Made by a program: the position numbers and the translations under genes
The notes under the pieces: generated by a model
Databases searched by the model: none
Told to the model about the DNA's origin: nothing
The model's input: the letters and a program-made list of their open reading frames with translations, nothing else
Source: an uncultured Solirubrobacterales bacterium
GTDB lineage: Bacteria > Actinomycetota > Thermoleophilia > Solirubrobacterales > 70-9
DNA length: 64,000 bases
Reading direction: 5' to 3'
Assembly (NCBI GenBank): GCA_963824215.1
Contig: CAWGOE010000004.1
Location: forward strand, 137,629-201,628
Shown: in pieces, positions 831-49,615 of the stretch
Position numbering within the stretch: the first letter of the stretch is position 1
How the letters are laid out: every line of letters starts with the position of its first letter

Positions 831-3800
831 ATGTCCGATACCCAGTCCCGTGAGCTTCATGGCGAGGGTGGCCCCGTCCGCTACTCGCCAGAGCGTGCCT
901 ACCGGCCGCTAGTTTCGCCGCCCAGCGTCGAGGACAAGGACGCCTGTGCGATCTATGCCTCTGTGCGCAAGGATGCGACGCCGGGCCACGAACCGGTCGA
1001 GCGCGCGATCCCGGCGCTGCAGAAGATGCTCCACCGCGCCGGCAACGTCGACGGCGAGGGCGATGGCTGTGGTCTCCTGGTCGACATCCCGCGCAAGATC
1101 TGGGCCGAGGAGGTTCGCTCCGGCGGGCACGATCCCTCGCTGACCCTCGACGACGCCTTTGCCGTCGCCCACGTCTTCGTCGATCGCTCGCAGGACCTCG
1201 AGCGTATTCAGCACGACGCCCGCGAGCTGCTCGGCCGCGGCGGCTTCCGCATCCTCGCCGAGCGCATCGGCGTCGTCGACTCGCCCGCGCTCGGCCCGAC
1301 CGCGCGCGAGGAGGAGCCCCACTTCTGGCAGCTCTGCGGCCTCGTCGCCGACGCTTCGCGCCGCGACCGCGTCCTCTTCGACCTGATGATCGAGCTGGAG
1401 ACCGAGCTCGGCGTCCACGTCCCTTCGCTCTCGGCGACGACCTGCGTCTACAAGGTGATGGGGGCGCCGAAGATCCTTGGCGAGTACTACCCCGACCTGC
1501 GCGACGAGCGCTTCGAGACGATCGGCTGTTTCGGCCACAACCGCTACTCGACCAATACCTGGCCCTCCTTCAAGCGGGTGCAGCCCTTCTCCGTGCTCGG
1601 TCACAACGGCGAGATCAACACGGTCGAACAACTGCGCCAGGAGGCGCGCATGCTCGGCGTGCCGATCCAGCCCGGCTCCTCGGACTCCCAGGACCTGAAC
1701 CGGACGATCGACACGCTGATCAGCCGCGACAAGCTCAGCCTCGCCGAGGCGATGGAGATGGTCGTGCCGCCGATCGTCAACGAGATCCGCGGCCTGCCCG
1801 AGGATCTGCACCGCTTCTACATGTACATGCGCCAGGCGATGGGGCCGTTTGCCCAGGGGCCGGTGGCACTGATCGCGCGCCACAGCGACGAGTGCGTCTT
1901 CTCCGCCGACGCGCTCGGCCTGCGGCCGCTCTGGCAGGTCGAGACCGGCGACGACTTTGTCTTCAGCTCCGAGCCCGGCGTCGTCGCGGTGAGCGAGATG
2001 GTCTCCGAGCCGAAGCCGCTCGCCCCCGGCGAGAAGGCGCTGGTCACGATCGACCGCGACCGCAAGCGCTCGACCCTGCACTCGCACGACGAGATGCTGC
2101 GCATCGTCCGCGACCGCTGGCTCGCCCGCAACGGGGCCGAGGAGGCGGCTCCCTACGATCGCGCCCTGACCACCGGCGGTCCGCTCGAGGGCTCGGACGT
2201 CCCCGGCTACTCCGACGCCGGCCCCGAAGAGCCGGTCAAGGTCGCCGATCGCATCCTCGCTGGCTTTGGCTGGCAGCGTGACGACGTCAAACTGGTCCAG
2301 CAGATGGCCTCCAACGGCGCCGAGCCGGTCGGATCGCTTGGCTACGACGGGCCGCTGGCGGCGCTCTCGCCGGAGCGCCAGAACCTCGCCGACTACTTCA
2401 AGGAGACGGTCGCCGTGGTCACCAACCCGGCGATCGACCGCGAGCGCGAGATGGAGCACTTCTCGACCCGCTCGATCTTCGGTCGCCGCCCCTCGATCGA
2501 CGCCGCCGGGGAGGACACCGGCACGGTCGAGACCTCTTTCCCGGTGATCCTCGGCGGTCACCATGGGATGGCGCCGCTCTCCGACAAGACCTATCGCAAG
2601 ATCGCCCGCGAGCACCAGACCTACCTGCTCGAGGACCTCTGGGAGCAGTTCCGCGGCCGCGCCGCCGCGGTCGACATCTCGCTGCTGGAGTCGGAGACCA
2701 CGCAGGGCGCGATAGAGCGGATCAAGCAGGAGGCGGTGAAGAAGGTGCGCGACGGCGCCGAGCTCCTGGTGCTGACCGATCGCACCGTCTATGACGCCGA
2801 GCGCCGCTACCTCGATCCGCACCTGGCCACCTCGGCAGTCGACCAGGCGCTGAAGCAGTTCCGGGTTGAGCCGGGTGAGGAGAACCTGAGGCGCCGCTGC
2901 GGCTTGGTATTGCGCTCCGCTTCGCTACGCAATGTCCACGACGTGATGCTCGCCCTCGGCCTCGGTGCCAACGGCGTCTGCCCGTACACGATGGTCGAGG
3001 TGATCTGCGTCGAGGACTACGAGACCGATATCGGCAACCTCTGCGCGGCGCTTGCCAAGGGAATCGAGAAAGTGATCTCGACGATCGGCATCCACGAGGT
3101 GCGCGGCTACGCCCGCCAGTTCTCCTCGATCGGCGTCAAGCCGGAGCTCGCCGAGATCTTCCAGACCGAGGCTTTTGCCGCCAGCGAGTCGGGCGGGGTC
3201 GGCTTTGCCGGCCTCGACGAGAGCACGAACGAGCGGGCGCGGATCCTCGGCGGCGACGAGGACGCCAAACCGGCCAAGACCTTCCGCTTCTACCCCAAGG
3301 TCTACAAGGCGGCGATCGCCACTGCCAACGGCTCTGGCTCCTACGCCGAATACAGCGAGAAAGTGCGCGACCTGGAGGCGCAGAGCCCGATCTCGATGCG
3401 CCACATCATGGGGCTCAAGGGCGACCGCGACCCGGTCGACCCGTCTACAGTCGATGCCGGGATCGGCCACCACGACTACCCCGTCGTGATCTCCTCGATG
3501 AGCTTCGGCTCGCAGTCCGAGCCCGCCTTCCGCGCCTACGCCGAGGCGGCGAAGTCGATCAACATCCTCTGCGTCAACGGCGAGGGCGGCGAGATCCGCG
3601 ACATGTACGGCAACTACCGCAAGTGGCGCGGCCAGCAGGTCGCCTCCGGCCGCTTCGGCGTTTCGGCCGAGATGCTCAACTCCTCCTACCTCGCCGAGAT
3701 CAAGATCGGCCAGGGCGCCAAGCCCGGCGAGGGCGGCCACCTGCCCGGCAAGAAGGTCTCCGAGAAGGTCGCCGCCGCGCGTAACGCGGCGCCCGGCACC

Positions 3801-31090: not shown

Positions 31091-31408
31091 ATGTCTGAGA
31101 ACCAAACCGAAGTGCTCACCGAGGACGACGTCTTCGAGGCGCTCGAGGAGGTCATCGATCCCGAGCTGGGGCTCGACTTCGTCTCCCTCGGCCTCGTCTA
31201 CGACGTCAACATCGAGGACGAAGACGTCTACGTCACCTTCACCCTGACTACGCCGGCCTGCCCAATCGGCCCCCAGGTCTCCGAGCAGATGAAAGAGTTC
31301 GTAGGCGACCTCCCCGGCGTAAGCGCCGTCCACCCAAAGATGATCTTCGACCCCCCCTGGTCCCCAGAGATGATGACCGAGGACGCCAAGTTTGCGCTGG
31401 GCTTCTAG
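31091..31408 (+). CDS. sufT: DUF59/SufT-like Fe-S cluster assembly protein
   Basis: EALEEVIDPELGLDFVSLGLVYDV...TLTTPACP is the DUF59 (MIP18) signature. Its last roughly 40 nt are the integration target repeated at 45543 and 49587. Confidence 0.85.
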   Translation: MSENQTEVLTEDDVFEALEEVIDPELGLDFVSLGLVYDVNIEDEDVYVTFTLTTPACPIGPQVSEQMKEFVGDLPGVSAVHPKMIFDPPWSPEMMTEDAKFALGF

Positions 31409-31447
31409 GCAGGGTTTGCGGGGTCATAGGGGGTCAATCGGGGTCTA
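31369..31447 (+). repeat. Direct repeat 1 (attL-like): 3' end of sufT-like gene plus 39 nt downstream
   Basis: gatgatgaccgaggacgccaagtttgcgctgggcttctaggcagggtttgcggggtcatagggggtcaatcggggtcta is nearly identical to 45543-45621. The 29-nt core is also present at 49587-49615. Confidence 0.85.
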
Positions 31448-33480: not shown

Positions 33481-34617
33481 TCAGGGCCGTTCCAAATATG
33501 AATCCAGCAACCGACGCGCTTCGACCTCGCTGCCGGGCATCAGGTGCCCGTAGCGGTCGAGCGTGATCGTGATCGTCGCGTGCCCCAGATAGGTGCTCAG
33601 GGTCTTGGCGTTGAGGCCAGCGGCGATTCCGATGCTGGCGAAAGTGTGGCGACCCTCGTGGAAACCGAGCGGCTTGAGCCCCGCCTCCTCCCATCGCGCG
33701 TGGGTGCGACGGCGCAGGATTCCGGGATCGGTTGGCCACTCGGGGTTGTTGGCACTCGGGAAAAGAAGGCCGTCGCTCGGGTGATCAAGCAGGACAAGAT
33801 GATCGACCAAGAGCGCAGCGAGCCTGTCGATGATCGGCACGCTACGCGGCTTACGGGACTTCGTTGGGATGAACTGCTTGGTTCCGCGATCCCAGCTCCG
33901 GTGGACGTGAATCCAGCCGCCATCGAGATCAACGGCGGCAACGTCGAGCGCCAGCAACTCCCCGAGACGTAGACCGGCGTAGACGGCGAGACCGAGCGTG
34001 GCCCGGTCCTTGGGCCGCATCGCGGCTATCAGTCTCTCTGCTTCGGCGGGGGACGCGATCCGGTCACGCGTCTTCTGTCCTGCCGGAAGCCGAAGTCCGA
34101 CGCAGGGATTCACATGGACCCACCCGCGCAGTTCCGCGAAGCCGATCAAGGCCCGCAGCGCCGCCACGATGTTCCTGATCGTGGACGGCGACCTGTCCGC
34201 CGTCGTCAGTCCGTCAACCCAGCGTTGGAGTTCTGGACGCTGAAGGCGGCTGATCCGCTTCGACCCCAGCTCGGACACCGCGTGATTGTTGAGGTCGTGC
34301 TCGTAGCCCCGAATGGTGCTCGGCTTGTAGGCGTGCCCGCCTTTCTGACGGAACGTGTTCGACTTCATATCGGCGATGAATTCCTCCGCCGCTTCGGAGA
34401 CGGTCGGCCCGGCTGCGGCCGACAGCGTGCCCGCCTGGAGGCGCGCTTGCGCGTCTACCCGCCAGGACCGTGCCTCGGCTAGTGATCCCGTCCACGGCCC
34501 CCGGATGTACTTGCCGACGGACTTGTCGTGGGCGGTGCCCCTGTATCGCTTCTTCCCCTTCGTGTCCTCTCGGACTTCGATCCCTTGGAGGGCCGGACTA
34601 CGCTTCTTAGTGCTCAT
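33481..34617 (-). CDS. int: Tyrosine recombinase / phage-type integrase
   Basis: SAM-like N-domain. Catalytic contexts GLRLGELLAL (R), HEGRHTF (H-x-x-R) and LGHATITITLDRYGHL (H...Y). Confidence 0.9.
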   Translation of the reverse strand: MSTKKRSPALQGIEVREDTKGKKRYRGTAHDKSVGKYIRGPWTGSLAEARSWRVDAQARLQAGTLSAAAGPTVSEAAEEFIADMKSNTFRQKGGHAYKPSTIRGYEHDLNNHAVSELGSKRISRLQRPELQRWVDGLTTADRSPSTIRNIVAALRALIGFAELRGWVHVNPCVGLRLPAGQKTRDRIASPAEAERLIAAMRPKDRATLGLAVYAGLRLGELLALDVAAVDLDGGWIHVHRSWDRGTKQFIPTKSRKPRSVPIIDRLAALLVDHLVLLDHPSDGLLFPSANNPEWPTDPGILRRRTHARWEEAGLKPLGFHEGRHTFASIGIAAGLNAKTLSTYLGHATITITLDRYGHLMPGSEVEARRLLDSYLERP

Positions 34618-35253: not shown

Positions 35254-38200
35254 ATGCTCTCAATCGGAAAGCTCGGCAAAGGACAGGAGCACTACTACCT
35301 CGACAAGGTCGCCGAAGGCGCTGAGGACTACTACTCCGGCGAGGGCGAGGTCGCCGGGGAATGGCTCGGCGACGCCGCCGAGGACCTTGGCCTCTCCGGG
35401 GAGGTCGAGGCAGCCCAGCTCGAAGCGATGCTGACCGGGCGCAACCCGGTCGATGGAGAGCCGCTAGTCGGGATGCGCGGCGTCCCTTCCAGCGGATCGG
35501 TCCCAGGCTTCGATCTCACCTTCTCGGCTCCCAAGTCTGTCTCCCTGCTGTGGAGCCTCGGCGGGCCCGTCGCGGCGGTCGAGGTCAAAGCCGCCCACCG
35601 CGAAGCCGTAGGAGCCGCCCTCGACTACATGCAGCGCGAGGCGTGCTGGACGCGGCGCGGAGCCGGAGGCTCGGAGTTCGTCCAGGGCAACGGCTACCTG
35701 GCGGCGGGCTACGTCCATCGCTCCTCGCGCAACGGCGATCCGCAGCTCCACACCCACGTCCTCATCGCCAACGCGACCAAGGCCGAAGGTCGCTGGACCC
35801 GTCTCTACCACCCGGCGATCTACGACCACGCCAAGACCGCCTCCTACATCTACGAGGCCCACCTTCGCCACGAGCTCAGCCGCCGCCTGGGCGTCGAGTG
35901 GCAGCCGACCCGCAAAGGCATCGCCGAGATCGCGGGCTTCGCCGACGAGCACCTGCGGGCCTTCTCCACCCGCCGCGCGGAAATACTCGAGGCGGCGGGC
36001 GCGGATGCCTCGGCGCGTTCGATGCAGGTCGCGGCGCTCGCCACCCGCAAGCCGAAGGAGCGCGACGTCGGCCACGGCGAGTTGCTTGTCCGATGGCGAT
36101 CGAGGGCCGAGGAGATTGGCTTGGACCGCGAGGCGATCGCGCGCACCTTCGACTCGGAGGCAGCGCTGAGGATCGACCGCACCGACGCGCCCGCCATATC
36201 GGAGGCGCAGTTCGGCCGCGCCGTCACGGCGGCTGCGTCCCACTTCGACCGCCGCGAGGCGATCCAGGCCGTCGCCGACGCGCTCCCGCAGGGTGCGCCG
36301 GGAGCCGAGGTCGAGCGCCTGGCCGACGGCTTCCTCGCGTCCGAGTCCGTGATCCAGATCGCGGAGGGCGCCAAAGGCCCCCGCTATACGACTCGCCGCG
36401 TTTGGGAGCTTGAGCGCGAAGCGCTGGCCGCTGCCGAGCGAATGCGAGCGCAGGGACCGGACCCGGCAGGCGAGCTGATTGCGGCGCGCGTGATCCACGC
36501 TCGCCCGACCTTGAAGGCAGACCAGCGCGAGATGATCCGCCGCCTCTTGACGAGCCCCGAGGGGGTCGCCGTCGTGATCGGCGAGGCGGGCAGCGGCAAG
36601 ACCTTCGCCATTGTCGCCGCAGCGGAGGGCTGGGCACAGGCCGGGATCGAGCTGCGCGCCGCAGCGCCGACCTGGCGAGCTGCGAACGTGATGCGAGCCG
36701 AGGGCTTGCCCGCTTCGAGCATCGCCAGCTTGCTCTTGCAGCTCGACCGCGCCGAGCACGAGGGCAGCGAGGGCTTGCCGCATGAATCGGTCCTGCTGAT
36801 CGACGAGGCCGGGATGGTGGACTCGGCCACCCTGGCGCGGCTCACCTCTCACGCCGAGCAGGCGCAGGCGAAGCTCGTCCTCGTCGGCGACCCTGAGCAG
36901 CTTGGCGAGATTGAGGCGGGCGGCCTGTTTCGGGCGCTCGCCGAGCGTGGCGAGCCGATCCACCTTGACGAGGTGATCCGCCACCGTCACGACCTCGACC
37001 GCGAAGCCGCGAAGCGGATCAGGGAGGGCGAGGGGCGCGAGGCGCTGAGTCTTTACCGATCCGAGGAGCGGGTGACGGTTGCGCCCGATGCCGAGGCCCG
37101 CCGCGAGGCAATGGTCCGCGACTGGCACGAGGCATTCGAGCGGGGCGAGGACGCCGTGATGGTCGCCAAGCAGAACGCCGAGGTCAGACGCTTGAACGAG
37201 GTCGCGCGAGAGGTTCGCCGCCAGGCCGGGCAGTTCGGAGCGCAGGAAATCGAGATCGGCGAAGCCACCTTCGCCGCCGGCGATCAGGTCATCACCCGCG
37301 TCAACGACCGCAGCGCCGAAGTCTTCAACCGGGAGCGCTGGCGCATCGCCGAGGTCGACGCCGCCGAGCGTCGCGTCGTCCTCGACGGGATCGACCACGC
37401 GAAGCGGGTCGAGATCGGCGACGACTATCTCGTGCGGACCAACCCGCACTCAGAGGCTCCCGCGCTCGAACACGCCTACGCCGTTACGACCTATTCGGCG
37501 CAGGGCACGACCGTGGACCGCGCCTTCGTCGCGGCCGACCCCTCGATGGACAAGCAGGAGCTATACGTCGCCGCCTCCCGCAGCCGCGAGGAGACCTTCA
37601 TCTACGCCACGCCGGAGATTCAGACCCATCGAGAGGAGATCGCGCCGCCCTCGCCCCACCTACGCGAGGGCATCCCGCACATCGGCGAAGCGGCCGAGCG
37701 CGACCGCTCCCAGCTCGCCGCTCACGAGGTGGCGCTGCGCTCGCAGTTCGCCGGCCTGCCGAGCGAGGAGCTGGTCGCCCGCCGCGACGAGCTGCGAGCC
37801 GCCGCAGGCAACGAGGAGAGCCGGGAGAGCCAGCGCCGCATGTTGCAGGAGCGGATCGAGCGCGCCCGCGAGCACATCGACGGCTTCGAGACCGAGCGCG
37901 AGGCAGCGCAGGCGCTACCGCGCCGCCAGAGGCACGACGAGCTGGCGCGCATCGACGCCTGGGAGGCGAGATCGCGCAGGCAGACCACACAGCTCGAAGC
38001 CGAGATGCAGGAGATGTCCGTCGTCGGGCAGGCCGCGCGCCGGGAGCTGGCGGTCGCCGAGCAGGTTCTCGCGCAGCGGTGCGAGCTGGCGGTCATCGCC
38101 GCGCGGATCTCCGCGCCCGTCTACGTCAAGGCCGAGCTGGGGGAGAGGCCGAGCGATCCGGCCAAGCGGAAGGCTTGGGATCGCGGTGTCTCTCAGATCG

Positions 38201-38391
38201 AGCGCTACCGACAGGAGCACGGGGTCAAGGACCCGAACAGGGCGCTGGGCCGCGAGGCGAAACGAGGAGCCGAGCGAGCACGGCAGGAGGCGACGTGGCG
38301 ACGAATCCGAGAGGCACAGCGGGCCCTTGGCCTGGGGCAGCACGCGGCGAGAGCGCGTCAGCTCGGTAGAGGGCTGAGCATTGGCAGGTGA
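35254..38391 (+). CDS. traA: MOBF-family conjugative relaxase (TrwC/TraA-like) fused to a RecD-like helicase
   Basis: N-terminus MLSIGKLGKGQEHYYLDKV...DYYSGEG, the HRSSRNGDPQLHTHVLIAN histidine triad, Walker A GEAGSGKTF and LLIDEAGMV. Confidence 0.9.
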   Translation: MLSIGKLGKGQEHYYLDKVAEGAEDYYSGEGEVAGEWLGDAAEDLGLSGEVEAAQLEAMLTGRNPVDGEPLVGMRGVPSSGSVPGFDLTFSAPKSVSLLWSLGGPVAAVEVKAAHREAVGAALDYMQREACWTRRGAGGSEFVQGNGYLAAGYVHRSSRNGDPQLHTHVLIANATKAEGRWTRLYHPAIYDHAKTASYIYEAHLRHELSRRLGVEWQPTRKGIAEIAGFADEHLRAFSTRRAEILEAAGADASARSMQVAALATRKPKERDVGHGELLVRWRSRAEEIGLDREAIARTFDSEAALRIDRTDAPAISEAQFGRAVTAAASHFDRREAIQAVADALPQGAPGAEVERLADGFLASESVIQIAEGAKGPRYTTRRVWELEREALAAAERMRAQGPDPAGELIAARVIHARPTLKADQREMIRRLLTSPEGVAVVIGEAGSGKTFAIVAAAEGWAQAGIELRAAAPTWRAANVMRAEGLPASSIASLLLQLDRAEHEGSEGLPHESVLLIDEAGMVDSATLARLTSHAEQAQAKLVLVGDPEQLGEIEAGGLFRALAERGEPIHLDEVIRHRHDLDREAAKRIREGEGREALSLYRSEERVTVAPDAEARREAMVRDWHEAFERGEDAVMVAKQNAEVRRLNEVAREVRRQAGQFGAQEIEIGEATFAAGDQVITRVNDRSAEVFNRERWRIAEVDAAERRVVLDGIDHAKRVEIGDDYLVRTNPHSEAPALEHAYAVTTYSAQGTTVDRAFVAADPSMDKQELYVAASRSREETFIYATPEIQTHREEIAPPSPHLREGIPHIGEAAERDRSQLAAHEVALRSQFAGLPSEELVARRDELRAAAGNEESRESQRRMLQERIERAREHIDGFETEREAAQALPRRQRHDELARIDAWEARSRRQTTQLEAEMQEMSVVGQAARRELAVAEQVLAQRCELAVIAARISAPVYVKAELGERPSDPAKRKAWDRGVSQIERYRQEHGVKDPNRALGREAKRGAERARQEATWRRIREAQRALGLGQHAARARQLGRGLSIGR

Positions 38392-38395
38392 ACCA

Positions 38396-38509
38396 CCCGA
38401 CCTACCGGCGATTGAAGCACCGCGAGGGCGGCCGTCAACCCCCTGCGGGGGTCGGGCGCAAGCGCCCTTGACTGCCGCCCTCGCGGTGCTGTTCTGCGGG
38501 TAGGTCGGG
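38396..38509. repeat. Branched inverted repeat downstream of relaxase (candidate oriT or terminator)
   Basis: Outer arms cccgacctacc 38396-38406 / 38499-38509. Inner 22-bp arms 38417-38438 / 38468-38489 (1 mismatch). The tip holds two mini-hairpins, ccccc-tgc-ggggg and gggcgc-aa-gcgccc. Confidence 0.8.
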
Positions 38510-38877: not shown

Positions 38878-39666
38878 CTACTTCCCTGCCGCCTCCGCCT
38901 TGCGCCGGCCGTCCCTCTTGCTCCCGCCGCCGTTTCGACCAGCCCCGTTTGCCCCGCTTGCTGACGCGCTCGCCGCCCCCTCGACCTGTGCGACCAGGGC
39001 ATACAAGTCTGCGGGCTCCCAGGCTGCCTCGAAGGCCAGCAGGGCGAAGGTGTAGCCGGTCGCCTCGCCGCCGTCGCCGTTGGCCTTCTCCCTGCGTTTC
39101 GCCGTAGCCCGCTGCTCATTTTCGACTTCCTTGGTCGCGCGCTCCGCGATTGCCTGCACGTTGCGCTGCCCCTCAGCGTCGAGGACGAGTGGGGTGCGGG
39201 TGATGTGATCGTGCTCTCCTTGCAGCTTGCCCGCTTTCAGGGCGTCCCCCAGGTCGTTGAACAGGTCGCTTGCTTGGCCCGCGCCCACGACGGCGCGCAG
39301 CCCTTTTTTGAGCTTCCGCCATGCCTTCGCCGGGAACAGGGTTTTCGCACTGGCGCGGTAGTAGTGCTCGACCGCTCCCCGCCGTGGCTCGGTGCGCGTC
39401 TCTTCGATCATCCCGTCGCAGTCGTCGCGCAGGACTTTGACGTGGTAGCTGACCTGGCTCAGACCTTCATCGAGCGCCTTGGACAGCGCCTTGGGGCTGA
39501 CCTCTCCCGCCACAGCGGCGAGCAGGATGTGTTGGCGCAGGACGTGATCCAGTGCCTTGACGAGCCGGGGGTCCACCAGCACTGGCAGGTGCTCCCCGCC
39601 CTTTGCGGTGTTCCCGTTGCGTGGCTTACCTCTAGGCATTCTCTCGTCCCTTCTGCCGGCGCTCAC
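38878..39666 (-). CDS. ArsR-like wHTH protein with extended C-terminal domain and basic tail
   Basis: ILLAAVAGEVSPKALSKALDEGLSQVSYHVKVLRD...RRGAVEHYYRA. Paralog of 46430..47203. The start may be Met 39639. Confidence 0.7.
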   Translation of the reverse strand: MSAGRRDERMPRGKPRNGNTAKGGEHLPVLVDPRLVKALDHVLRQHILLAAVAGEVSPKALSKALDEGLSQVSYHVKVLRDDCDGMIEETRTEPRRGAVEHYYRASAKTLFPAKAWRKLKKGLRAVVGAGQASDLFNDLGDALKAGKLQGEHDHITRTPLVLDAEGQRNVQAIAERATKEVENEQRATAKRREKANGDGGEATGYTFALLAFEAAWEPADLYALVAQVEGAASASASGANGAGRNGGGSKRDGRRKAEAAGK

Positions 39667-39842: not shown

Positions 39843-40037
39843 TTAGTCGAGGAGCTGGCCTGGCTTGACCTCGACCGCTTTTGCAAGCCGACGCAGCGTC
39901 GAGATTTTCGGATCGCGCTTCCCGGCCTCCATCCGGCTGACCTCCGTGACATGGACGCCGCTGCGCTGTGCGACCTCTTCCTGGGTGAGCCCCAGGTGTT
40001 CCCGTGCCTCACGCAGTTTGGTGCCGAAGTGGTTCAC
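39843..40037 (-). CDS. XRE-family HTH regulator
   Basis: FGTKLREAREHLGLTQEEVAQRSGVHVTEVSRMEAGKRDPKISTLRRLAKAV. Confidence 0.8.
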   Translation of the reverse strand: MNHFGTKLREAREHLGLTQEEVAQRSGVHVTEVSRMEAGKRDPKISTLRRLAKAVEVKPGQLLD

Positions 40038-40196
40038 GGCGAGGATCGTCTGCGCTGGAGACAGAAACCGCCATAGGAAACTTCACAAGTCCTTGCGTAG
40101 ACTGCCGTCCCTCCATGCCGCCTCGGGACGAAGACGGGGGAGCCGGCCACGGGCCTCACGCAAGCGGGCCGCGACCGGCCCCCTTTATCGCATGCC

Positions 40197-40256
40197 TTAG
40201 CCGTGCTTCATCACTTGCACGCTGGGACAGACGTTCGTTACTTGCGCGATCTGCAT
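40197..40256 (-). CDS. Conserved 19-aa micro-ORF (MQIAQVTNVCPSVQVMKHG), copy 1
   Basis: ATG 8 nt after AAGGGAGGTGA. A same-length paralog with the same SD sits at 47342..47401. Substitutions between the copies are largely synonymous or conservative. Confidence 0.55.
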   Translation of the reverse strand: MQIAQVTNVCPSVQVMKHG

Positions 40257-40429
40257 CGCATTCACCTCCCTTTCTCGTCTTTCAGCGGGTGGTCCCGCTG
40301 GACAAGGAGGGAATGCTAAGGAAACATCGAGTATCCGCTAAAAAACGGCCTGGCCAGGGTGTTTTCTCCAGGCAGGCCCTTATGCTCTGGCACGCCTGAG
40401 TAAGCGAACGGCACGGAGCAACGACTATT

Positions 40430-41749
40430 TTGGTGGAGACGGCGATCAGATTGGGGCAGGGCAAGCGGGGCGTTGCCGCCGCTGTCGCCTACGCCGTCAC
40501 GCACCAAGCGAGGACCGAAATCCACACGCTCCTCAACGAAGCGCCGCGCTCGCAGGAGGAACTAGCGCGTCTAATCTGCGCCCCTGCGAGCAAGAATATC
40601 GCGCATCACCTTAGGGAAATGCTTGCAGACGGCTCCATCGAGCTTGCTTATGTCAAGCCGGTGCGCAACGCCTTCGAGCACTACTACCGCGCGGTCGAGA
40701 TTCCCTTCTACACCGATGAGGAGATCGCCGCGATGCCCCCAGAGGCGAGAGAGGCAATCGCAGGCGTGATCTTTGAGGGGGTCATGTCCGAGGCGATGGC
40801 TGCTCTTTGGGCGGGAAAGATGGTCAACGACCGTCGGGTTTGGCTGTCTTGGCGCTGGTTCAACGTAGATGCTCAGGGCCGTGAGGACATAGCGGACGAC
40901 CAGGCGAGGCATTGGGAGCGAGTTCGAGAGATCGAGGTTGAATCACTTGGACGTTGCGCCAAGTCGGGGGAGCCGACCAAGTCGATCATCGTGACCTCGT
41001 TGGGATTTGAGCGCTTCCGTTTCTCGGCACCCCAGCCAATGCCGGTGGTGGGTTCGGAAGAAAGTGCGCCGCCGCTGATCAGGTTGGGCCAGGGGAAGCG
41101 AGGAGTCGAGGAAGCTGTCGGCTACGCGCTCAAGCACCAGCACCGGGTTGAAATCCTGTGCCTTCTGAACGAAGGCGAGCACAACCGCTATGAGCTAGCC
41201 GCGTTGATCGGCGAGGAGCCGACCAAGATCAAGCACCACCTCAAAGAACTGCTGGACGAGGGCTCGATCGAACTGGCCTACTCCAAGCGCGTCGGCAACA
41301 TGATTCAGCACTACTACCGGGCGGTCGAGATCCCGTTCTACACCGACGACGAAATCGAGGCGCTGCGTCCTGAGGAGAGGCAGGCATTTGCTGGCGTGAT
41401 CCTCCAGGCGGTCATGGCTGAGGCGCTGGCCGCGCTGTGGGCGGGGAAGATGGCTGATGATCGCCGCGTTTGGCTGTCTTGGCGTTGGTTCCACGTCGAT
41501 GCGCAGGGCCGTGAGGACATAGCCGACGAGCAGGCGAGGCATTGGGAGCGAGTTCGAGAGTGCGAGGCAGAATCGACTAACCGCTGCGCCAAGTCGGGGG
41601 AGCCGACCAAGTCGATCATCGTGGCATCGCTCGGACATGTGCGCTGCCGCAGAGCCCCGATGGCAACGCCGGCCGACGATCCGACCGAGCCTGGCGCTGT
41701 GGGCAATGTTCTGAGACCCACAGGGCTCACGCAAGAGGTCCGCCTGTAG
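40430..41749 (+). CDS. Fused tandem duplication of an ArsR-like wHTH protein (two units of roughly 215 aa)
   Basis: Both halves contain IRLGQGKRGV...H(Q)...EI..LLNE...HHL.E.L.DGSIELAY...HYYRAVEIPFYTD(D/E)EI...WAGKM..DRRVWLSWRWF.VDAQGREDIAD.QARHWERVRE. TTG/GTG start. Confidence 0.7.
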   Translation: MVETAIRLGQGKRGVAAAVAYAVTHQARTEIHTLLNEAPRSQEELARLICAPASKNIAHHLREMLADGSIELAYVKPVRNAFEHYYRAVEIPFYTDEEIAAMPPEAREAIAGVIFEGVMSEAMAALWAGKMVNDRRVWLSWRWFNVDAQGREDIADDQARHWERVREIEVESLGRCAKSGEPTKSIIVTSLGFERFRFSAPQPMPVVGSEESAPPLIRLGQGKRGVEEAVGYALKHQHRVEILCLLNEGEHNRYELAALIGEEPTKIKHHLKELLDEGSIELAYSKRVGNMIQHYYRAVEIPFYTDDEIEALRPEERQAFAGVILQAVMAEALAALWAGKMADDRRVWLSWRWFHVDAQGREDIADEQARHWERVRECEAESTNRCAKSGEPTKSIIVASLGHVRCRRAPMATPADDPTEPGAVGNVLRPTGLTQEVRL

Positions 41750-44450: not shown

Positions 44451-44804
44451 TCAGGCGGTGCGCGTCCGTACTCTAAGTTCGACCTGGTAGTCGGCGGGAA
44501 CCGAGACAGTGTGATGTCCGGGTTTGGGCTTTGGGCGACGAGCCAGCAGGCGCTTGAGTAGGGCCAACCCACCGCCGCGGGGTATGGCAGCAATCTCGTT
44601 CCCGTCGGGATAGACGACCACGAGCGGCCGATAGTCGGCGAGTGCTTGAGATATCAAGTCCGAGGCATCTGGGGAGTCTGCGGGGATGAGCACAGTCCTA
44701 TTCGGATAGCGCTCGTCTGCCTCAGGATCGGCAGCGATACGGCCGAGAAGATCGAAGGCAGCATCGGTGCCCGGCGTGTTCTTGCTTTCGCCTGGTTTCT
44801 TCAC
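44451..44804 (-). CDS. Hypothetical protein (117 aa)
   Basis: ORF directly downstream of vapC on the same strand. No motif. Confidence 0.45.
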   Translation of the reverse strand: MKKPGESKNTPGTDAAFDLLGRIAADPEADERYPNRTVLIPADSPDASDLISQALADYRPLVVVYPDGNEIAAIPRGGGLALLKRLLARRPKPKPGHHTVSVPADYQVELRVRTRTA

Positions 44805-44811
44805 AGCTCGG

Positions 44812-45231
44812 TCAGCGGATCAGTCGAACCTCGACGCCGAGGTAGGGCACGTCCTCCCAGGCTTCATCGGTCGTTAGCGCAGGGACACCGAGCCGCTCTG
44901 ACAGAGCGAGGCACGCGCGATCAGCAAGCGATAGCCCTCGCTGCTTTGTGATCGGTCGAAGTTGCGCAAGGGCAACGCAGTCCGCCGCCGTGAGCGGTTC
45001 AATCGTCAGCGCTCGTTTGGAGCCTTCCGCTTTGCGCAGCTCCGCTGCCGCCGTGGCCGGATCGCCACCTCGCTCCGCGACCTTTGACAGCACCTCAGCC
45101 AGGTTCACCACGCTGATCGCTGCCCCATCTGCGATTGCGTCGGTTACCACCTCGCTGCCCTCCTCGTCGTTGAGGAGCGCCAGGACCGCGGAGGCATCGA
45201 GGACAGATGCCGCCGATTCAGCGTTTGCCAC
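44812..45231 (-). CDS. vapC: PIN-domain ribonuclease toxin (VapC-like)
   Basis: VLDASAVLALLNDEEG..., ...VNLAEV..., LSLADRACLALSERLGVPALTTD carry the PIN acidic residues. Overlaps the upstream antitoxin gene. Confidence 0.85.
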   Translation of the reverse strand: MANAESAASVLDASAVLALLNDEEGSEVVTDAIADGAAISVVNLAEVLSKVAERGGDPATAAAELRKAEGSKRALTIEPLTAADCVALAQLRPITKQRGLSLADRACLALSERLGVPALTTDEAWEDVPYLGVEVRLIR

Positions 45232-45542: not shown

Positions 45543-45621
45543 GATGATGACCGAGGACGCCAAGTTCGCGCTCGGCTTCTAGGCAGGGTTTGCGGAGTCA
45601 TAGGGGGTCAATGGGGGTCTA
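45543..45621 (+). repeat. Direct repeat 2 (junction between the two tandem elements)
   Basis: 79 nt nearly identical to 31369-31447, including the post-stop arm. Encodes the orphan ...MMTEDAKFALGF* tail. Confidence 0.85.
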
Positions 45622-45774: not shown

Positions 45775-46083
45775 GCGAGCTCGCGATCATCGCCGCCCGA
45801 ATCCCCCCGCCCGCCTACGTCAAGAGCGAGCTGGGGAGAGGCCGAGCGACCCGGCGAAGCGCAAGGCATGGGATCGCGGCGTCTCACAGATCGAGCGCTA
45901 CCGCCAAGAGCACGGCATCAAGGACCCGAGCAAAGCCTTGGTCGCAAGGCGAAACGAGGAGCCGAGCGCGTCCGCCAGGAGACCGCGTGGCGGCGGCTAC
46001 GGGAGGTTCAGCGAGTCCTAGGCCGTGGGCAACACGCGGCGAGAGCGCGCCAGCTCTGCAGAGGGTTGAGCATCAGGCGATGA
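45775..46083 (+). pseudogene. Relaxase C-terminal remnant with frameshifts
   Basis: Nucleotide homology to 38080-38391. The peptide pieces ELAIIAARIPPPAYVKSELG and KAKRGAERVRQETAWRRLREVQRVLGRGQHAARARQLCRGLSIRR fall in different frames because of single-nt deletions. Confidence 0.8.
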
Positions 46084-46092
46084 GGAAGGACA

Positions 46093-46192
46093 CCCCGACC
46101 CACCGGCATTGAAGCGCCGCGAGGATGGCCGTCAACCCCCTGCGAGGGTCGGGCGCAAGCGCCCTTGACTGCCACCCTTTGCGGGTAGGTCA
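46093..46192. repeat. Degenerate copy of the branched inverted repeat
   Basis: ccccgacccaccggcattgaagcgccgcgaggatggccgtcaaccccctgcgagggtcgggcgcaagcgcccttgactgccaccctttgcgggtaggtc aligns with 38396-38509, with a deletion in the right arm. Confidence 0.75.
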
Positions 46193-46429: not shown

Positions 46430-47203
46430 TTAGCGTCTCTTGGTCGCCGAAGCCTTCTTGCCATCCTTGGCGTTTCTGGCGGACAGAAAGCTCGCGAGGA
46501 AGACAGTTGCAGTGGTTGGTCCTGCTGCCTTGCCGTTGGCTTTGGATAGTCGCTTGTTCGCTTTGGCCTGCAGCTCCAGGACGGACTCCACGAAGTCTCT
46601 GGAGAGCTGCCCGAATTCATCGACCCCGAGCGCGTCGAGAATCAGCGGCATCCAGCTCAGCTCGCCAGGTGGGTGGTCGAAGACACCAGCCTTGATCGAA
46701 GCCGAGGCATCCTCGAAGAACTCTTGGAGGATGGCCAATGAGATCGTCTTTCGAATTGCGGGCGGGAGGTTGTCCCATGCATCAGGCGGAATCAGGGTGG
46801 GAGCGGCTGCCCGGTAGAAGTGCTCGACTGCTCCGCGGCGCGGAATCTTGTGATCCGCCACGATCAGGCGGCATTCCCTCAGCACGCCGACGTGATAGCT
46901 GACTTGGCTAAGCCCTTCGTCCAGCTCCTCAGAGATTTCCTTTGGGCTGGCGACGCGTTCGCAGAAGATCGCGAAGATTTTGACGCGCTCCCTCTTTGAC
47001 AGCGCTTTCATCTGCCTGTAGTTGACCAGCTCCCCTCGGGGGCGCTTTGGTCGATTGCTGGCCGGTTTCCTTCCGGTTGCTTTCGGCACGCCTTTTGCTG
47101 ATGGCCCACTTCTCTTACGCGCAGCTTTCTTCTGGGGAATTGGGATCGCCTCCATCCTTCTTTTGGTACGGCAAATTTGAGGCGCTCCAAAGTACGGGTT
47201 CAA
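46430..47203 (-). CDS. ArsR-like wHTH protein with extended C-terminal domain and basic tail (paralog of 38878..39666)
   Basis: VKIFAIFCERVASPKEISEELDEGLSQVSYHVGVLRE...RRGAVEHFYRA. Start uncertain. Confidence 0.7.
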   Translation of the reverse strand: MNPYFGAPQICRTKRRMEAIPIPQKKAARKRSGPSAKGVPKATGRKPASNRPKRPRGELVNYRQMKALSKRERVKIFAIFCERVASPKEISEELDEGLSQVSYHVGVLRECRLIVADHKIPRRGAVEHFYRAAAPTLIPPDAWDNLPPAIRKTISLAILQEFFEDASASIKAGVFDHPPGELSWMPLILDALGVDEFGQLSRDFVESVLELQAKANKRLSKANGKAAGPTTATVFLASFLSARNAKDGKKASATKRR

Positions 47204-47341
47204 TTGGGACTAAACGAAGCGAATTTCCTAGAGCTTCAAAGAAGCTGTAATTTGCCTTTAATAAATCTGTGCATTACGGCGGGAGCCCAATTAGACGACC
47301 GGCGACGCGCCGAGAACGGCGGGCCGCCGGTCCATGCGCTG

Positions 47342-47401
47342 CTAGGCCGACTTGGTAACTGAAACAGCCGGAACTATCTGACTGACGTTGCTGATCTGCA
47401 C
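47342..47401 (-). CDS. Conserved 19-aa micro-ORF (VQISNVSQIVPAVSVTKSA, GTG start), copy 2
   Basis: GTG 7 nt after GGGAGGAGGTGA. Same length and spacing as copy 1. Followed by the hairpin gaccggcg...cgccggtc. Confidence 0.55.
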   Translation of the reverse strand: MQISNVSQIVPAVSVTKSA

Positions 47402-47547
47402 GTTGCCTCACCTCCTCCCAGGGATTAGCGCTAAATGCTCAGATTATCTAGATCATTTAGCGGCTACTCGCTCATCGGGCGTGCCGCGGGGCAGCAGATC
47501 ACTCAGGAATCGGCCGACAAATCGGCTAGGCTGGTGCGGTCAACACA

Positions 47548-48177
47548 GTGCAAGGAGGAGACTTGGCCGCAGGTAATCGCACCGCGAGAAAGGAGCTGCA
47601 CGAGCTACTTGCTCAGCTCGTGGCGTGCATCAATACTGTCAAGGTCCTCACGGTGCTCGCCGAACGTGCGGCTAGCCCGAAGGAAATAGGCGAATCTCTG
47701 GGCTTGAAGACGCCAACTGCCAGCTATCACGTTCGCAAGCTGCTGGACCTGGGCCTCGTCGAGCTAGTTAAGGAGGAGGATGTTGGCGGCGTCATACAGC
47801 ACACCTATCGAGCGATAGTTCGGCCGCTCATCAGCACCGAAGAGTGGGAGGGCTTGGATGTTGCCGAGCGGCAGCAATTCTCAATTTGGATCGTGCAGTT
47901 GATTTTGGCCGATGCGGCTAAGTCTTTTCAGGCCAAGGTCTTCGACGCGCGGTCAAGCCGCCACCTCAGCAGGACCCCCATGATCGCCGACGATCAAGGC
48001 TTCAGCGAAGTTGCTGACATCCAGAACAAGGCGCTAGAAGACATCATTCAAACGCAAGCCGTCATCGCCGACAGGCTTGCTCGCAATGAAACGATGGGGA
48101 CGCACATGATTGCGGCCATGATCTGTTTCGAGCTTCCCGGGCGAAGCGAGGGGCCCGCATCGATTGTGGAGGAATAG
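47548..48177 (+). CDS. ArsR-like wHTH protein with C-terminal extension
   Basis: VKVLTVLAERAASPKEIGESLGLKTPTASYHVRKLLDLGLVE...IQHTYRA. Start is GTG 47548 or TTG 47563, after AAGGAGG. Confidence 0.7.
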   Translation: MQGGDLAAGNRTARKELHELLAQLVACINTVKVLTVLAERAASPKEIGESLGLKTPTASYHVRKLLDLGLVELVKEEDVGGVIQHTYRAIVRPLISTEEWEGLDVAERQQFSIWIVQLILADAAKSFQAKVFDARSSRHLSRTPMIADDQGFSEVADIQNKALEDIIQTQAVIADRLARNETMGTHMIAAMICFELPGRSEGPASIVEE

Positions 48178-49586: not shown

Positions 49587-49615
49587 CGAGGACGCCAAGT
49601 TCGCGCTTGGCTTCT
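49587..49615 (+). repeat. Direct repeat 3 (attR-like core; displaced original 3' end of the sufT-like gene)
   Basis: cgaggacgccaagttcgcgcttggcttct followed by TGA and native flanking sequence. Encodes the orphan ...EDAKFALGF*. Confidence 0.8.

Follow-up and report, generated by a model that had tools for sequence, protein, structure and literature searches.

Several described systems come close to the locus reported here. Arrest peptides carry conserved residues at a fixed distance from the stop codon, '+x+' being the macrolide arrest motif, and in the microcin C operon the order is mccA, hairpin, mccB. For the ArsR-type proteins PH1932, Phr and Kfla_6221 we know of no reported microprotein partner. 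The peptide-regulator cassettes of Firmicutes serve as a further comparison. The subject of this work is a 19-codon micro-open reading frame (micro-ORF) that occurs twice in a 64,000 nt stretch of DNA from an uncultured Solirubrobacterales bacterium (GenBank assembly GCA_963824215.1, contig CAWGOE010000004.1, positions 137,629 to 201,628; hereafter 'the window'), where a first-pass annotation made from the letters alone had drawn attention to it. Each copy is led by a strong Shine-Dalgarno (SD) sequence, is followed by a GC-rich hairpin and diverges from the gene of an ArsR-like winged helix-turn-helix (wHTH) regulator, and we are highly confident that the micro-ORF is a genuine protein-coding gene which forms a cassette together with this regulator. 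As to its role, we give about an even chance to the reading that it encodes a stand-alone, regulator-linked 19-residue microprotein which would act in trans in the regulator circuit and would not be a leader peptide.

By the databases and literature searched the micro-ORF family is undescribed: it had no match in Pfam, NCBIfam (for which the peptides were padded to 20 aa) or Rfam, where a permissive threshold gave one chance-level match elsewhere and none at the micro-ORFs, and the literature searched held no relevant paper on it. Standard gene callers overlook genes as short as 19 codons, and the family is therefore missing from protein databases.

A 19-codon gene family under coding selection

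With the downstream wHTH as anchor we fetched 80 genome loci, and a profile scan recovered 78 SD-led 19-codon ORFs from 70 of 81 sources, all 78 with the SD block GGGAGGTGA/GGGGGTGA. This first scan imposed the 19-codon length; it was rerun as a profile hidden Markov model (HMM) search against every short ORF of 8-70 aa, which added new members and a subfamily of the form MTIKPCPTV.P.LSL.K.R, the only members off length being one 20-mer and two 18-mers. Once protein-anchored and IMG/VR loci had been added to the wHTH-anchored set, the total came to 96 copies, with 91 distinct peptides (88 of them 19 residues long) in 83 genome or virus sources. A separate, unanchored metagenome scan, in which the pattern specified the SD and ORF skeleton only and favoured the MKI...VVP...K subtype, covered at least 120 loci and yielded at least 107 further distinct peptides, and among the matches listed the unconstrained positions agreed with the family consensus. 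Altogether the family holds at least about 200 distinct sequences.

The consensus is M-K-I-x5-V-V-P-L-L-S-I-x-K-x-x. By position the profile reads M1, K/Q/T2, I/V3, five variable polar residues, V9, V/I10, P11 (70 peptides) or S11 (15), L/S12, L/V13, S/H14, I/V/T15, x16, K17, x18 and x19, so that 85 of 88 peptides have P or S at position 11. A lysine stands third from the C-terminus (Lys -3) in all 91 distinct peptides, the profiles having been seeded with K17-containing peptides, and the last residue is R in 30, G in 29, A in 13, S in nine, N in eight and T in two; the peptides of what we call class C loci often end K-x-R. Median hydropathy (GRAVY) is 0.31, net charge +1 to +3, and charged residues lie at both ends. 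The longest hydrophobic stretch of the consensus is about seven residues (VVPLLSI) in a peptide of 19 aa, too short to cross a membrane as a type I toxin or small membrane protein would, in keeping with the earlier opinion that this is no obvious transmembrane toxin. A metal-binding peptide, with C12, H14 and H18 of class A as ligands, was considered and rejected, as class C peptides have neither Cys nor His.

All wHTH-related loci were labelled Solirubrobacterales, Conexibacteraceae or unclassified Actinomycetota. Several diverged copies may occur within one fetched locus (L001, L010, L023, L036, L060 and L070), and IMG/VR 'viral' contigs carry more diverged SD-led 19-aa micro-ORFs (L089:689, L091:2801 and L101:2710, all on the minus strand) that diverge from distant wHTH relatives of 28-42% identity; the cassette is thus also found on putative prophage or mobile contigs. 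Most family members nevertheless lie at chromosomal, non-mobile loci, for which the suggestion of a small regulator of transfer is too narrow.

Substitutions were analysed over 77 distinct coding sequences by the Nei-Gojobori method. pN/pS was 0.53 in frame vs 1.01 and 1.24 in the other two frames, GC at codon positions 1, 2 and 3 was 0.56, 0.36 and 0.76, and of the three codon positions the second had the lowest mean entropy and the third the highest. V9 is encoded by GTN, any of the four bases serving as the third, and K17 by AAG throughout. This coding signature, together with the invariant strong SD and near-invariant length, argues that a translated product is selected at the amino-acid level, and so bears out the proposal, made from the two window copies, that selection acts on the peptide and not on the RNA. 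Uniform use of AAG at K17 could hint at a nucleotide-level constraint, as would be expected if the micro-ORF were no gene but a chance ORF over a conserved RNA or DNA element (an operator or a small RNA). We consider this extremely unlikely, since the purifying selection is frame-specific and third positions vary, the ORF is intact and near-fixed in length across the whole family while the flanking spacers vary, the SD is optimal in every copy of the profile scan and Rfam offers no match.

The two window copies belong to this family. When an HMM built without the window sequences was run on the 1248 short ORFs of the window, they were its top matches (E-values in the table) and the next match reached only E~1, so that the match to the family is not due to chance. 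Re-reading the sequence placed both ORFs at the positions, strands and start codons first reported for them, with eight of 19 residues identical and the conserved V and P codons differing at third positions; the homologues that the annotation had proposed to look for, together with a substitution test, turned out to be abundant and to keep frame and length. Its SD spacings of eight and seven nt need a small correction, the distances being five and six nt; they fit only if counted from GGGAGG. An ortholog of the copy 2 peptide in L084 reads MRINAVEQTIPAVSVTKSA. The proteins flanking copies 1 and 2 are only 32-38% identical, and in a MAFFT alignment of the two intergenic regions, whose DNA is too diverged, the ORFs were not aligned in register; the two are therefore old homologues rather than the result of a recent duplication.

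A divergent ArsR-like regulator as the constant partner

A divergent wHTH gene of one family stands beside 82 of the 88 wHTH-anchored copies, at a median distance of 215 nt. As the anchored loci had been fetched via the wHTH, the linkage was retested by the unanchored SD/ORF scan, where among the matches listed a divergent wHTH was present at 104 of the 109 copies with enough upstream sequence (median 219.5 nt). That each window copy diverges from an ArsR-like gene had been seen from the start and holds for both; that this gene is the invariant partner had been missed through attention to the gene downstream.

The regulator is modelled by AlphaFold2 as an ArsR-like winged helix with long C-terminal helices (predicted local distance difference test, pLDDT, 76.9). 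Its library matches are to HTH_20/HTH_5, all NCBIfam matches falling below cutoff, and the best Foldseek matches are Kfla_6221 (4g6q, E=8.6e-6), PH1932 (1uly, E=7.8e-5) and Phr (2p4w, E=3.6e-4), with a weak sequence match to 1uly. Against the solved ArsR-type structures the TM-scores are 0.34-0.44 at 14-22% identity.

In one clade of the regulator family the micro-ORF is fused in frame to the regulator gene. The clade comprises the cluster representatives P0041, P0054, P0056 and P0057 (215-222 aa, about 50-60% mutually identical), which gene callers report as fused proteins and whose C-termini read ...CFELPEEV[KR]x followed by MK[IVM]xE[VI]PSTVP..[IV]RKS[NS]. At the DNA level the SD GAGGAGGTGA is read as E-E-V, and the regulator gene ends, in the same reading frame, with a 19-codon family member. 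When the tails of long ORFs were searched with the peptide HMM, six of 2105 matched, all from these four proteins, three of the six being the same P0056 sequence in L081-L083. The loci of this clade have nothing at the divergent position and lack the strong hairpin, and no two of them share a downstream gene; the peptide thus stays with the regulator when the geometry changes. A fusion of regulator and peptide, as read from these sequences, is classic gene-fusion evidence for a shared function.

The same arrangement bears on the idea that the micro-ORF encodes a pro-peptide which is exported as a cell-cell signal and then sensed by the regulator next door, as in Rgg/SHP or PrgX/PrgQ. The layout on a mobilisable element, a tiny peptide gene that diverges from a regulator and is followed by a hairpin, would suit it, as would diverged copies in one fetched locus, which is what cognate pairs would give. 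The peptide, however, has charged ends, is only mildly hydrophobic and contains nothing like a signal segment; the regulator combines an ArsR-like winged helix with a C-terminal part that is helical and is not a tetratricopeptide repeat (TPR) receptor; no exporter or Opp genes were noticed nearby; and in-frame fusion to a cytoplasmic regulator favours intracellular action. We think an exported signal very unlikely, the composition of the peptide speaking against it; a signalling peptide had been among the first suggestions.

The proposed mini-gene, its downstream genes and an MccB/PaaA-like enzyme

If the micro-ORF encodes a microprotein acting in trans, each copy would be a self-contained mini-gene with its own promoter region, a near-perfect SD, 19 codons and a GC-rich hairpin. 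In many copies an inverted repeat would overlap the promoter region, the hairpin would end or stabilise the short transcript, the ArsR-family wHTH regulator would control the mini-gene and the peptide would serve the regulator circuit as a small partner or effector; in the window this circuit would correspond to the regulatory module that two mobilisable elements, integrated in tandem, carry next to the relaxase.

Defined as at least 9 bp with a free energy of -25 kcal/mol or lower and a start within 25 nt of the stop codon, a strong hairpin occurs in about 90% of copies (median -35 kcal/mol) compared with about 30% of random windows from the same loci, and in the unanchored sample 103 of 111 distinct downstream regions had one among the matches listed. 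Its base lies 0-15 nt past the stop, its stem sequence varies between loci, and both window copies are followed by a GC-rich hairpin, as first noted; its role would be that of a terminator or 3' stabiliser. Upstream, a [T/G/C]AGCAT motif recurs 5' of the copies as a candidate -10 box, and AT-rich inverted repeats are found in 36 of 96 copies vs seven of 96 shuffles, centred about 88 nt 5' of the start. The inverted repeat of copy 2 has a conserved counterpart in L085 and may be bound by the regulator.

What lies beyond the hairpin differs from locus to locus: a family 4-like uracil-DNA glycosylase (UDG), an XRE protein, a wHTH, a His-rich CDF transporter, a sortase-like protein, an RmlD-like reductase or DUF5996, several of them identified from sequence only, as are all but DUF5996 in the cargo loci L080 (3' of the micro-ORF at 3753, minus strand), L051, L062 and L039/L104. 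L030, L036, L060, L070 and L081 have a convergent gene next, whose end lies 20-76 nt past the micro-ORF stop. Class C, the commonest chromosomal order, runs wHTH(-), micro-ORF(+), UDG-like(+), wHTH(-) and a 368-aa E1-like enzyme(+); many class C loci are orthologous and represent few independent events. Several downstream genes are preceded by motifs of their own, namely ACTT-GTG-AAGT 5' of the XRE gene, AGCTTC-TTT-GAAGCT 5' of the 257-aa wHTH gene and, conserved at the nucleotide level in 31 class C-type loci (e.g. L059), (C)RTGATTCAGTT 12-17 nt 5' of the likely UDG-like ATG. In some loci this last motif opens a mini-ORF of 6-7 codons whose stop overlaps the UDG start (ATGA), and it is also present at L088:2140-2170, in a locus that has no micro-ORF. 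We rejected a T4 gene 60-like bypass to the UDG gene, or reinitiation there, the motif not being consistently in frame with the UDG ORF and occurring in L088 without a micro-ORF. A branched-chain amino-acid attenuator was likewise rejected, the downstream genes being unrelated to ilv or leu, as was the macrolide '+x+' arrest motif, which fits only the peptides ending K-x-R and not the whole family.

These observations bear on whether the micro-ORF is a cis-acting leader, whose translation or nascent-chain stalling would set the flow past the hairpin into the downstream gene, whether by attenuation or by arrest-peptide control of the TnaC or Erm-leader type. The hairpin is so close to the stop that a ribosome terminating there would overlap it; P11 and K17 stand at a fixed distance from the stop, a feature not specific to arrest peptides; and the class C ending K-x-R resembles the '+x+' motif. 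Against a leader, the stretch from the SD to the 5' arm of the hairpin (SD, ORF and spacer) is not more stable than its shuffles (median z=0.29, with three of 91 below z=-2), and no alternative antiterminator structure was found. The gene downstream changes between loci and is convergent in at least five of them, and in the fusion clade the ORF has stayed with the regulator, whereas the downstream genes all differ and the strong hairpin is lost. The XRE, wHTH-257 and UDG genes have their own operator-like motifs, the UDG motif even where there is no micro-ORF; conservation extends over the whole peptide and not the C-terminal part alone; and there is no run of regulatory codons. The regulator genes that the first-pass annotation had placed 140-160 nt downstream are indeed there (XRE 160 nt past stop 1, ArsR-like 139 nt past stop 2), but a leader peptide for them is disfavoured, and we consider a cis-acting role for the family rather unlikely.

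Several points nevertheless weigh against a free-standing mini-gene whose peptide acts in trans. With a probably regulated promoter on one side and diverse cargo genes on the other, the ORF is placed as a leader would be. The hairpins lack U-tracts, and scans for U-tract terminators and for consensus promoters found none at either window copy, so that the boundaries of the transcription unit are inferred only; copy 1 also has no clear operator palindrome upstream. Tandem pairs of diverged micro-ORFs, 120-160 nt apart, occur in L001 (2122 and 2284, +), L013 (3262 and 3381, +), L062 (3752 and 3602, -) and L010 (1823 and 1690, -), the second micro-ORF having no recognisable promoter of its own, which implies that some transcription passes the first hairpin, a point that would also suit a leader. 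About half of the wHTH genes (76 of 153) have no micro-ORF, the AlphaFold2 model of the P0056 monomer leaves the peptide tail disordered (pLDDT <50) with no docking predicted, a result that speaks neither for nor against binding in a dimer, and all sequences come from metagenome-assembled genomes and metagenomes.

A second kind of partner is found at part of the loci. An E1-like enzyme of 367-383 aa is highly conserved in Solirubrobacterales (L058, L087, L059, L042 and L076). In its 368-378 aa versions it best matches MccB (3h5a, 3h5n and 6om4; E about 1e-32) along the adenylation domain and matches PaaA (5ff5, E=1e-27) from residue 4 onward; it scores above the cutoff of NCBIfam TIGR03882 ('TOMM precursor leader peptide-binding') and is labelled 'TOMM precursor leader peptide-binding protein' at NCBI. 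It lies 0.1-1.7 kb downstream of about half the micro-ORF copies, being present in the fetched locus of 45 of 96 (median 1656 nt from the micro-ORF start) and, in the unanchored sample, within 3.2 kb of 32 of 46 copies among the matches listed; in L058 and L087 it starts 66-75 nt past the micro-ORF stop, just beyond the hairpin. It is absent from the 64-kb window and from the fetched loci of the other 51 copies.

The 19-mer might accordingly be a precursor of the type of ribosomally synthesised and post-translationally modified peptides (RiPPs), a substrate of this enzyme, whose N-terminal peptide-clamp domain, similar to a RiPP recognition element, would hold the MK[IV] N-terminus during adenylation of the C-terminus; a C-terminal lactam or another adduct could then be formed by the invariant Lys -3, and mobile-element copies would rely on the enzyme of the chromosome. 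Such processing would be compatible with a peptide acting on the regulator. It is suggested by the similarity to MccB and PaaA with the TIGR03882 score, by the nearness of enzyme and micro-ORF, closest in L058 and L087, by the mccA-mccB-like order of a tiny strong-SD ORF, a hairpin and the enzyme gene, and by a fixed length with both ends conserved, which fits a peptide held at two sites. On the other side stand the copies without the enzyme, those of the window included, and the C-terminal residue, as MccA-type peptides end in Asn and only eight of 91 do so here. No YcaO or other RiPP gene and no exporter or immunity gene was apparent beside the enzyme in L042, L058 and L076, in the few kb whose ORF sequences were read. 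The enzyme is core-like, with at least 76% identity over the best 120 matches, and occurs in L088 without any micro-ORF; most co-occurrences are one syntenic chromosomal locus and so effectively one evolutionary event, and the partner found throughout is the wHTH gene rather than the enzyme. We regard a RiPP-type precursor as possible but doubtful: the early suggestion of a RiPP-like peptide has gained an MccB/PaaA-like enzyme as a lead, and in the window itself that enzyme is missing. A combined scheme, in which the 19-mers are modified by the E1 enzyme at the C-terminus or at Lys -3 and then serve as cognate effectors of paralogous ArsR-like regulators, with mobile copies tapping the host enzyme, seems improbable to us; if true, it would amount to a new RiPP-like class of effectors and, for Actinomycetota, the first case of ArsR-type regulators with a peptide ligand.

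Setting in the window and comparison with known systems

The window is high in GC with a lower-GC island at about 21-50 kb. Three att-like direct repeats, each the 3' end of a plus-strand ORF, support the view that two integrated elements lie here in tandem, as first annotated, and a relaxase-3' relic in the second (45833-46178, 80-93% identical to 38140-38481) agrees with this. Element 1 is 14.2 kb long and holds a tyrosine integrase (33481-34617) and a TrwC relaxase (35254-38391), and element 2 is a 4-kb remnant with the relic and the regulatory module only. In both, the module runs relaxase end, small ORF, ArsR-like wHTH, micro-ORF and divergent wHTH, with an XRE gene between the wHTH and the micro-ORF in element 1 alone. 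The coordinates are collected in the table.

Table. Features of the window and, where a locus number is given, of related loci
Feature	Position	Strand	Remarks
Micro-ORF, copy 1	40197-40256	-	ATG, 19 codons and TAA; MQIAQVTNVCPSVQVMKHG; leave-out HMM E=1.7e-7
Micro-ORF, copy 2	47342-47401	-	GTG, 19 codons and TAG; (M)QISNVSQIVPAVSVTKSA; leave-out HMM E=8.3e-7
Shine-Dalgarno, copy 1	40262-40272	-	AAGGGAGGTGA, 5 nt 5' of ATG
Shine-Dalgarno, copy 2	47408-47419	-	GGGAGGAGGTGA, 6 nt 5' of GTG
GC-rich hairpin, copy 1	40136-40183	-	Begins 13 nt past stop; GGGGGCCGG...CCGGCTCCCCC; without U-tract
GC-rich hairpin, copy 2	47297-47332	-	Begins 9 nt past stop
Small hairpin in 5' untranslated region, copy 1	40283-40300	-	CAGCGGG-ACCA-CCCGCTG, directly 5' of SD; kept in class A copies
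Candidate -10 box, copy 1	40313-40318	-	TAGCAT; candidate only
Inverted repeat, copy 2	47429-47462	.	CGCTAAATGATC-n10-GAGCATTTAGCG; overlaps candidate -10 GAGCAT; putative operator
Divergent partner regulator, copy 1	40430-41749	+	ArsR-like winged helix of 439 aa, PH1932/Phr-like by family
Divergent partner regulator, copy 2	47548-48177	+	209-aa ORF; called product P0001 is 204 aa
Motif CTACGCAAGGACTTGTGAAGTTTCC	40075-40103	-	With palindrome ACTT-GTG-AAGT; between hairpin and XRE gene
XRE-family HTH gene	39843-40037	-	Downstream of copy 1; HTH_3, E=1.5e-17
Second wHTH, same ArsR-like family	38878-39666	-	262 aa, further downstream of copy 1
wHTH, same family	46430-47203	-	257 aa, downstream of copy 2; 38% identical to 38878-39666
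att-like direct repeat 1 of 3	31369-31447	+	Left end of element 1 (repeats D4/D6)
att-like direct repeat 2 of 3	45543-45621	+	Junction of tandem elements; 95% identical to 31369-31447
att-like direct repeat 3 of 3	49587-49615	+	Right end of element 2 (D6, 97%)
Closest enzyme gene, L058	Micro-ORF stop at locus position 3740	-	Gene starts 66 nt past this stop
Closest enzyme gene, L087	L087:3001-4152		
In-frame 19-codon ORF, fusion clade	L081:3610-3669		
In-frame 19-codon ORF, fusion clade	L103:3089-3148		
In-frame 19-codon ORF, fusion clade	L104:3092-3151		
In-frame 19-codon ORF, fusion clade	L105:3092-3151		

The partner of copy 1 is internally duplicated into two units of wHTH and C-terminal domain (40595-40894 vs 41225-41524, 77%, repeat D1), and most class A loci (L007, L008, L010, L011 and others) likewise have a duplicated regulator of about 440 aa as partner. 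For the partner of copy 2 the closest protein match, P0001, is 100% identical and lies on a 1.3-Mb contig. The CTACGCAAGGACTTGTGAAGTTTCC-type motif is found again at the corresponding position of class A loci and related ones and is probably the XRE gene's own operator or promoter. The 262-aa wHTH had no match among PLSDB plasmids. Near the right end of element 1, a PIN-domain (VapC-like) gene (44812-45231, minus strand) and a small neighbouring ORF (44451-44804, minus strand) are probably a toxin-antitoxin pair.

The family is abundant, is under purifying selection and keeps to a single regulator family in a soil lineage that is widespread and largely uncultured and in which the micro-ORF cassettes point to a small-peptide layer of gene control. 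Were the peptide a detachable subunit or effector of the regulator, it would represent a new form of control of ArsR-type repressors, those of mobile elements included; were it an enzyme substrate, the missing precursor of an orphan MccB/PaaA-like enzyme would have been identified.

Among described proteins PH1932 (1uly/2cwe), the Pyrococcus heat-shock regulator Phr (2p4w) and Kfla_6221 (4g6q) resemble the partner regulator in combining an N-terminal ArsR-like winged helix with a long helical C-terminal part, the similarity being modest. The micro-ORF itself shares with trpL/hisL, the upstream ORF of whiB7, TnaC and the Erm leaders a short SD-led ORF with a hairpin close behind, and with leader and arrest peptides conserved residues at a fixed distance from the stop. 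Unlike attenuators, the family has no antiterminator structure and no runs of regulatory codons, its downstream gene is inconstant and sometimes convergent, and the ORF stays with the regulator. With mccA-mccB and PaaP-PaaA, L058 and L087 have in common a short ORF with a strong ribosome-binding site, a stable hairpin and an E1-like enzyme with an N-terminal peptide-binding domain, an order that class C loci display at a distance of about 1.6 kb. Unlike MccA, the peptides follow no C-terminal Asn rule, their invariant residue being Lys -3; in contrast to the mcc and paa clusters, no export or immunity genes were seen beside the enzyme in the loci read, and the enzyme is core-like and absent from the window. 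The mcc and paa clusters in turn are without the wHTH regulator that is the micro-ORF's constant partner.

The peptide-regulator cassettes of Firmicutes are similar in layout, for in Rgg/SHP, PrgX/PrgQ (pCF10) and the RRNPP systems, too, a tiny peptide gene adjoins and often diverges from a regulator and is followed by a terminator, the role that the hairpin may have here; these cassettes likewise lie on conjugative or mobilisable elements and occur as diverged paralogous pairs in one genome. The micro-ORF cassettes differ from them in an ArsR-like winged-helix partner in place of an Rgg or TPR receptor, in a polar peptide that is charged at both ends and has no export signal, in belonging to the Actinomycetota and in including a clade in which peptide and regulator are fused in frame.

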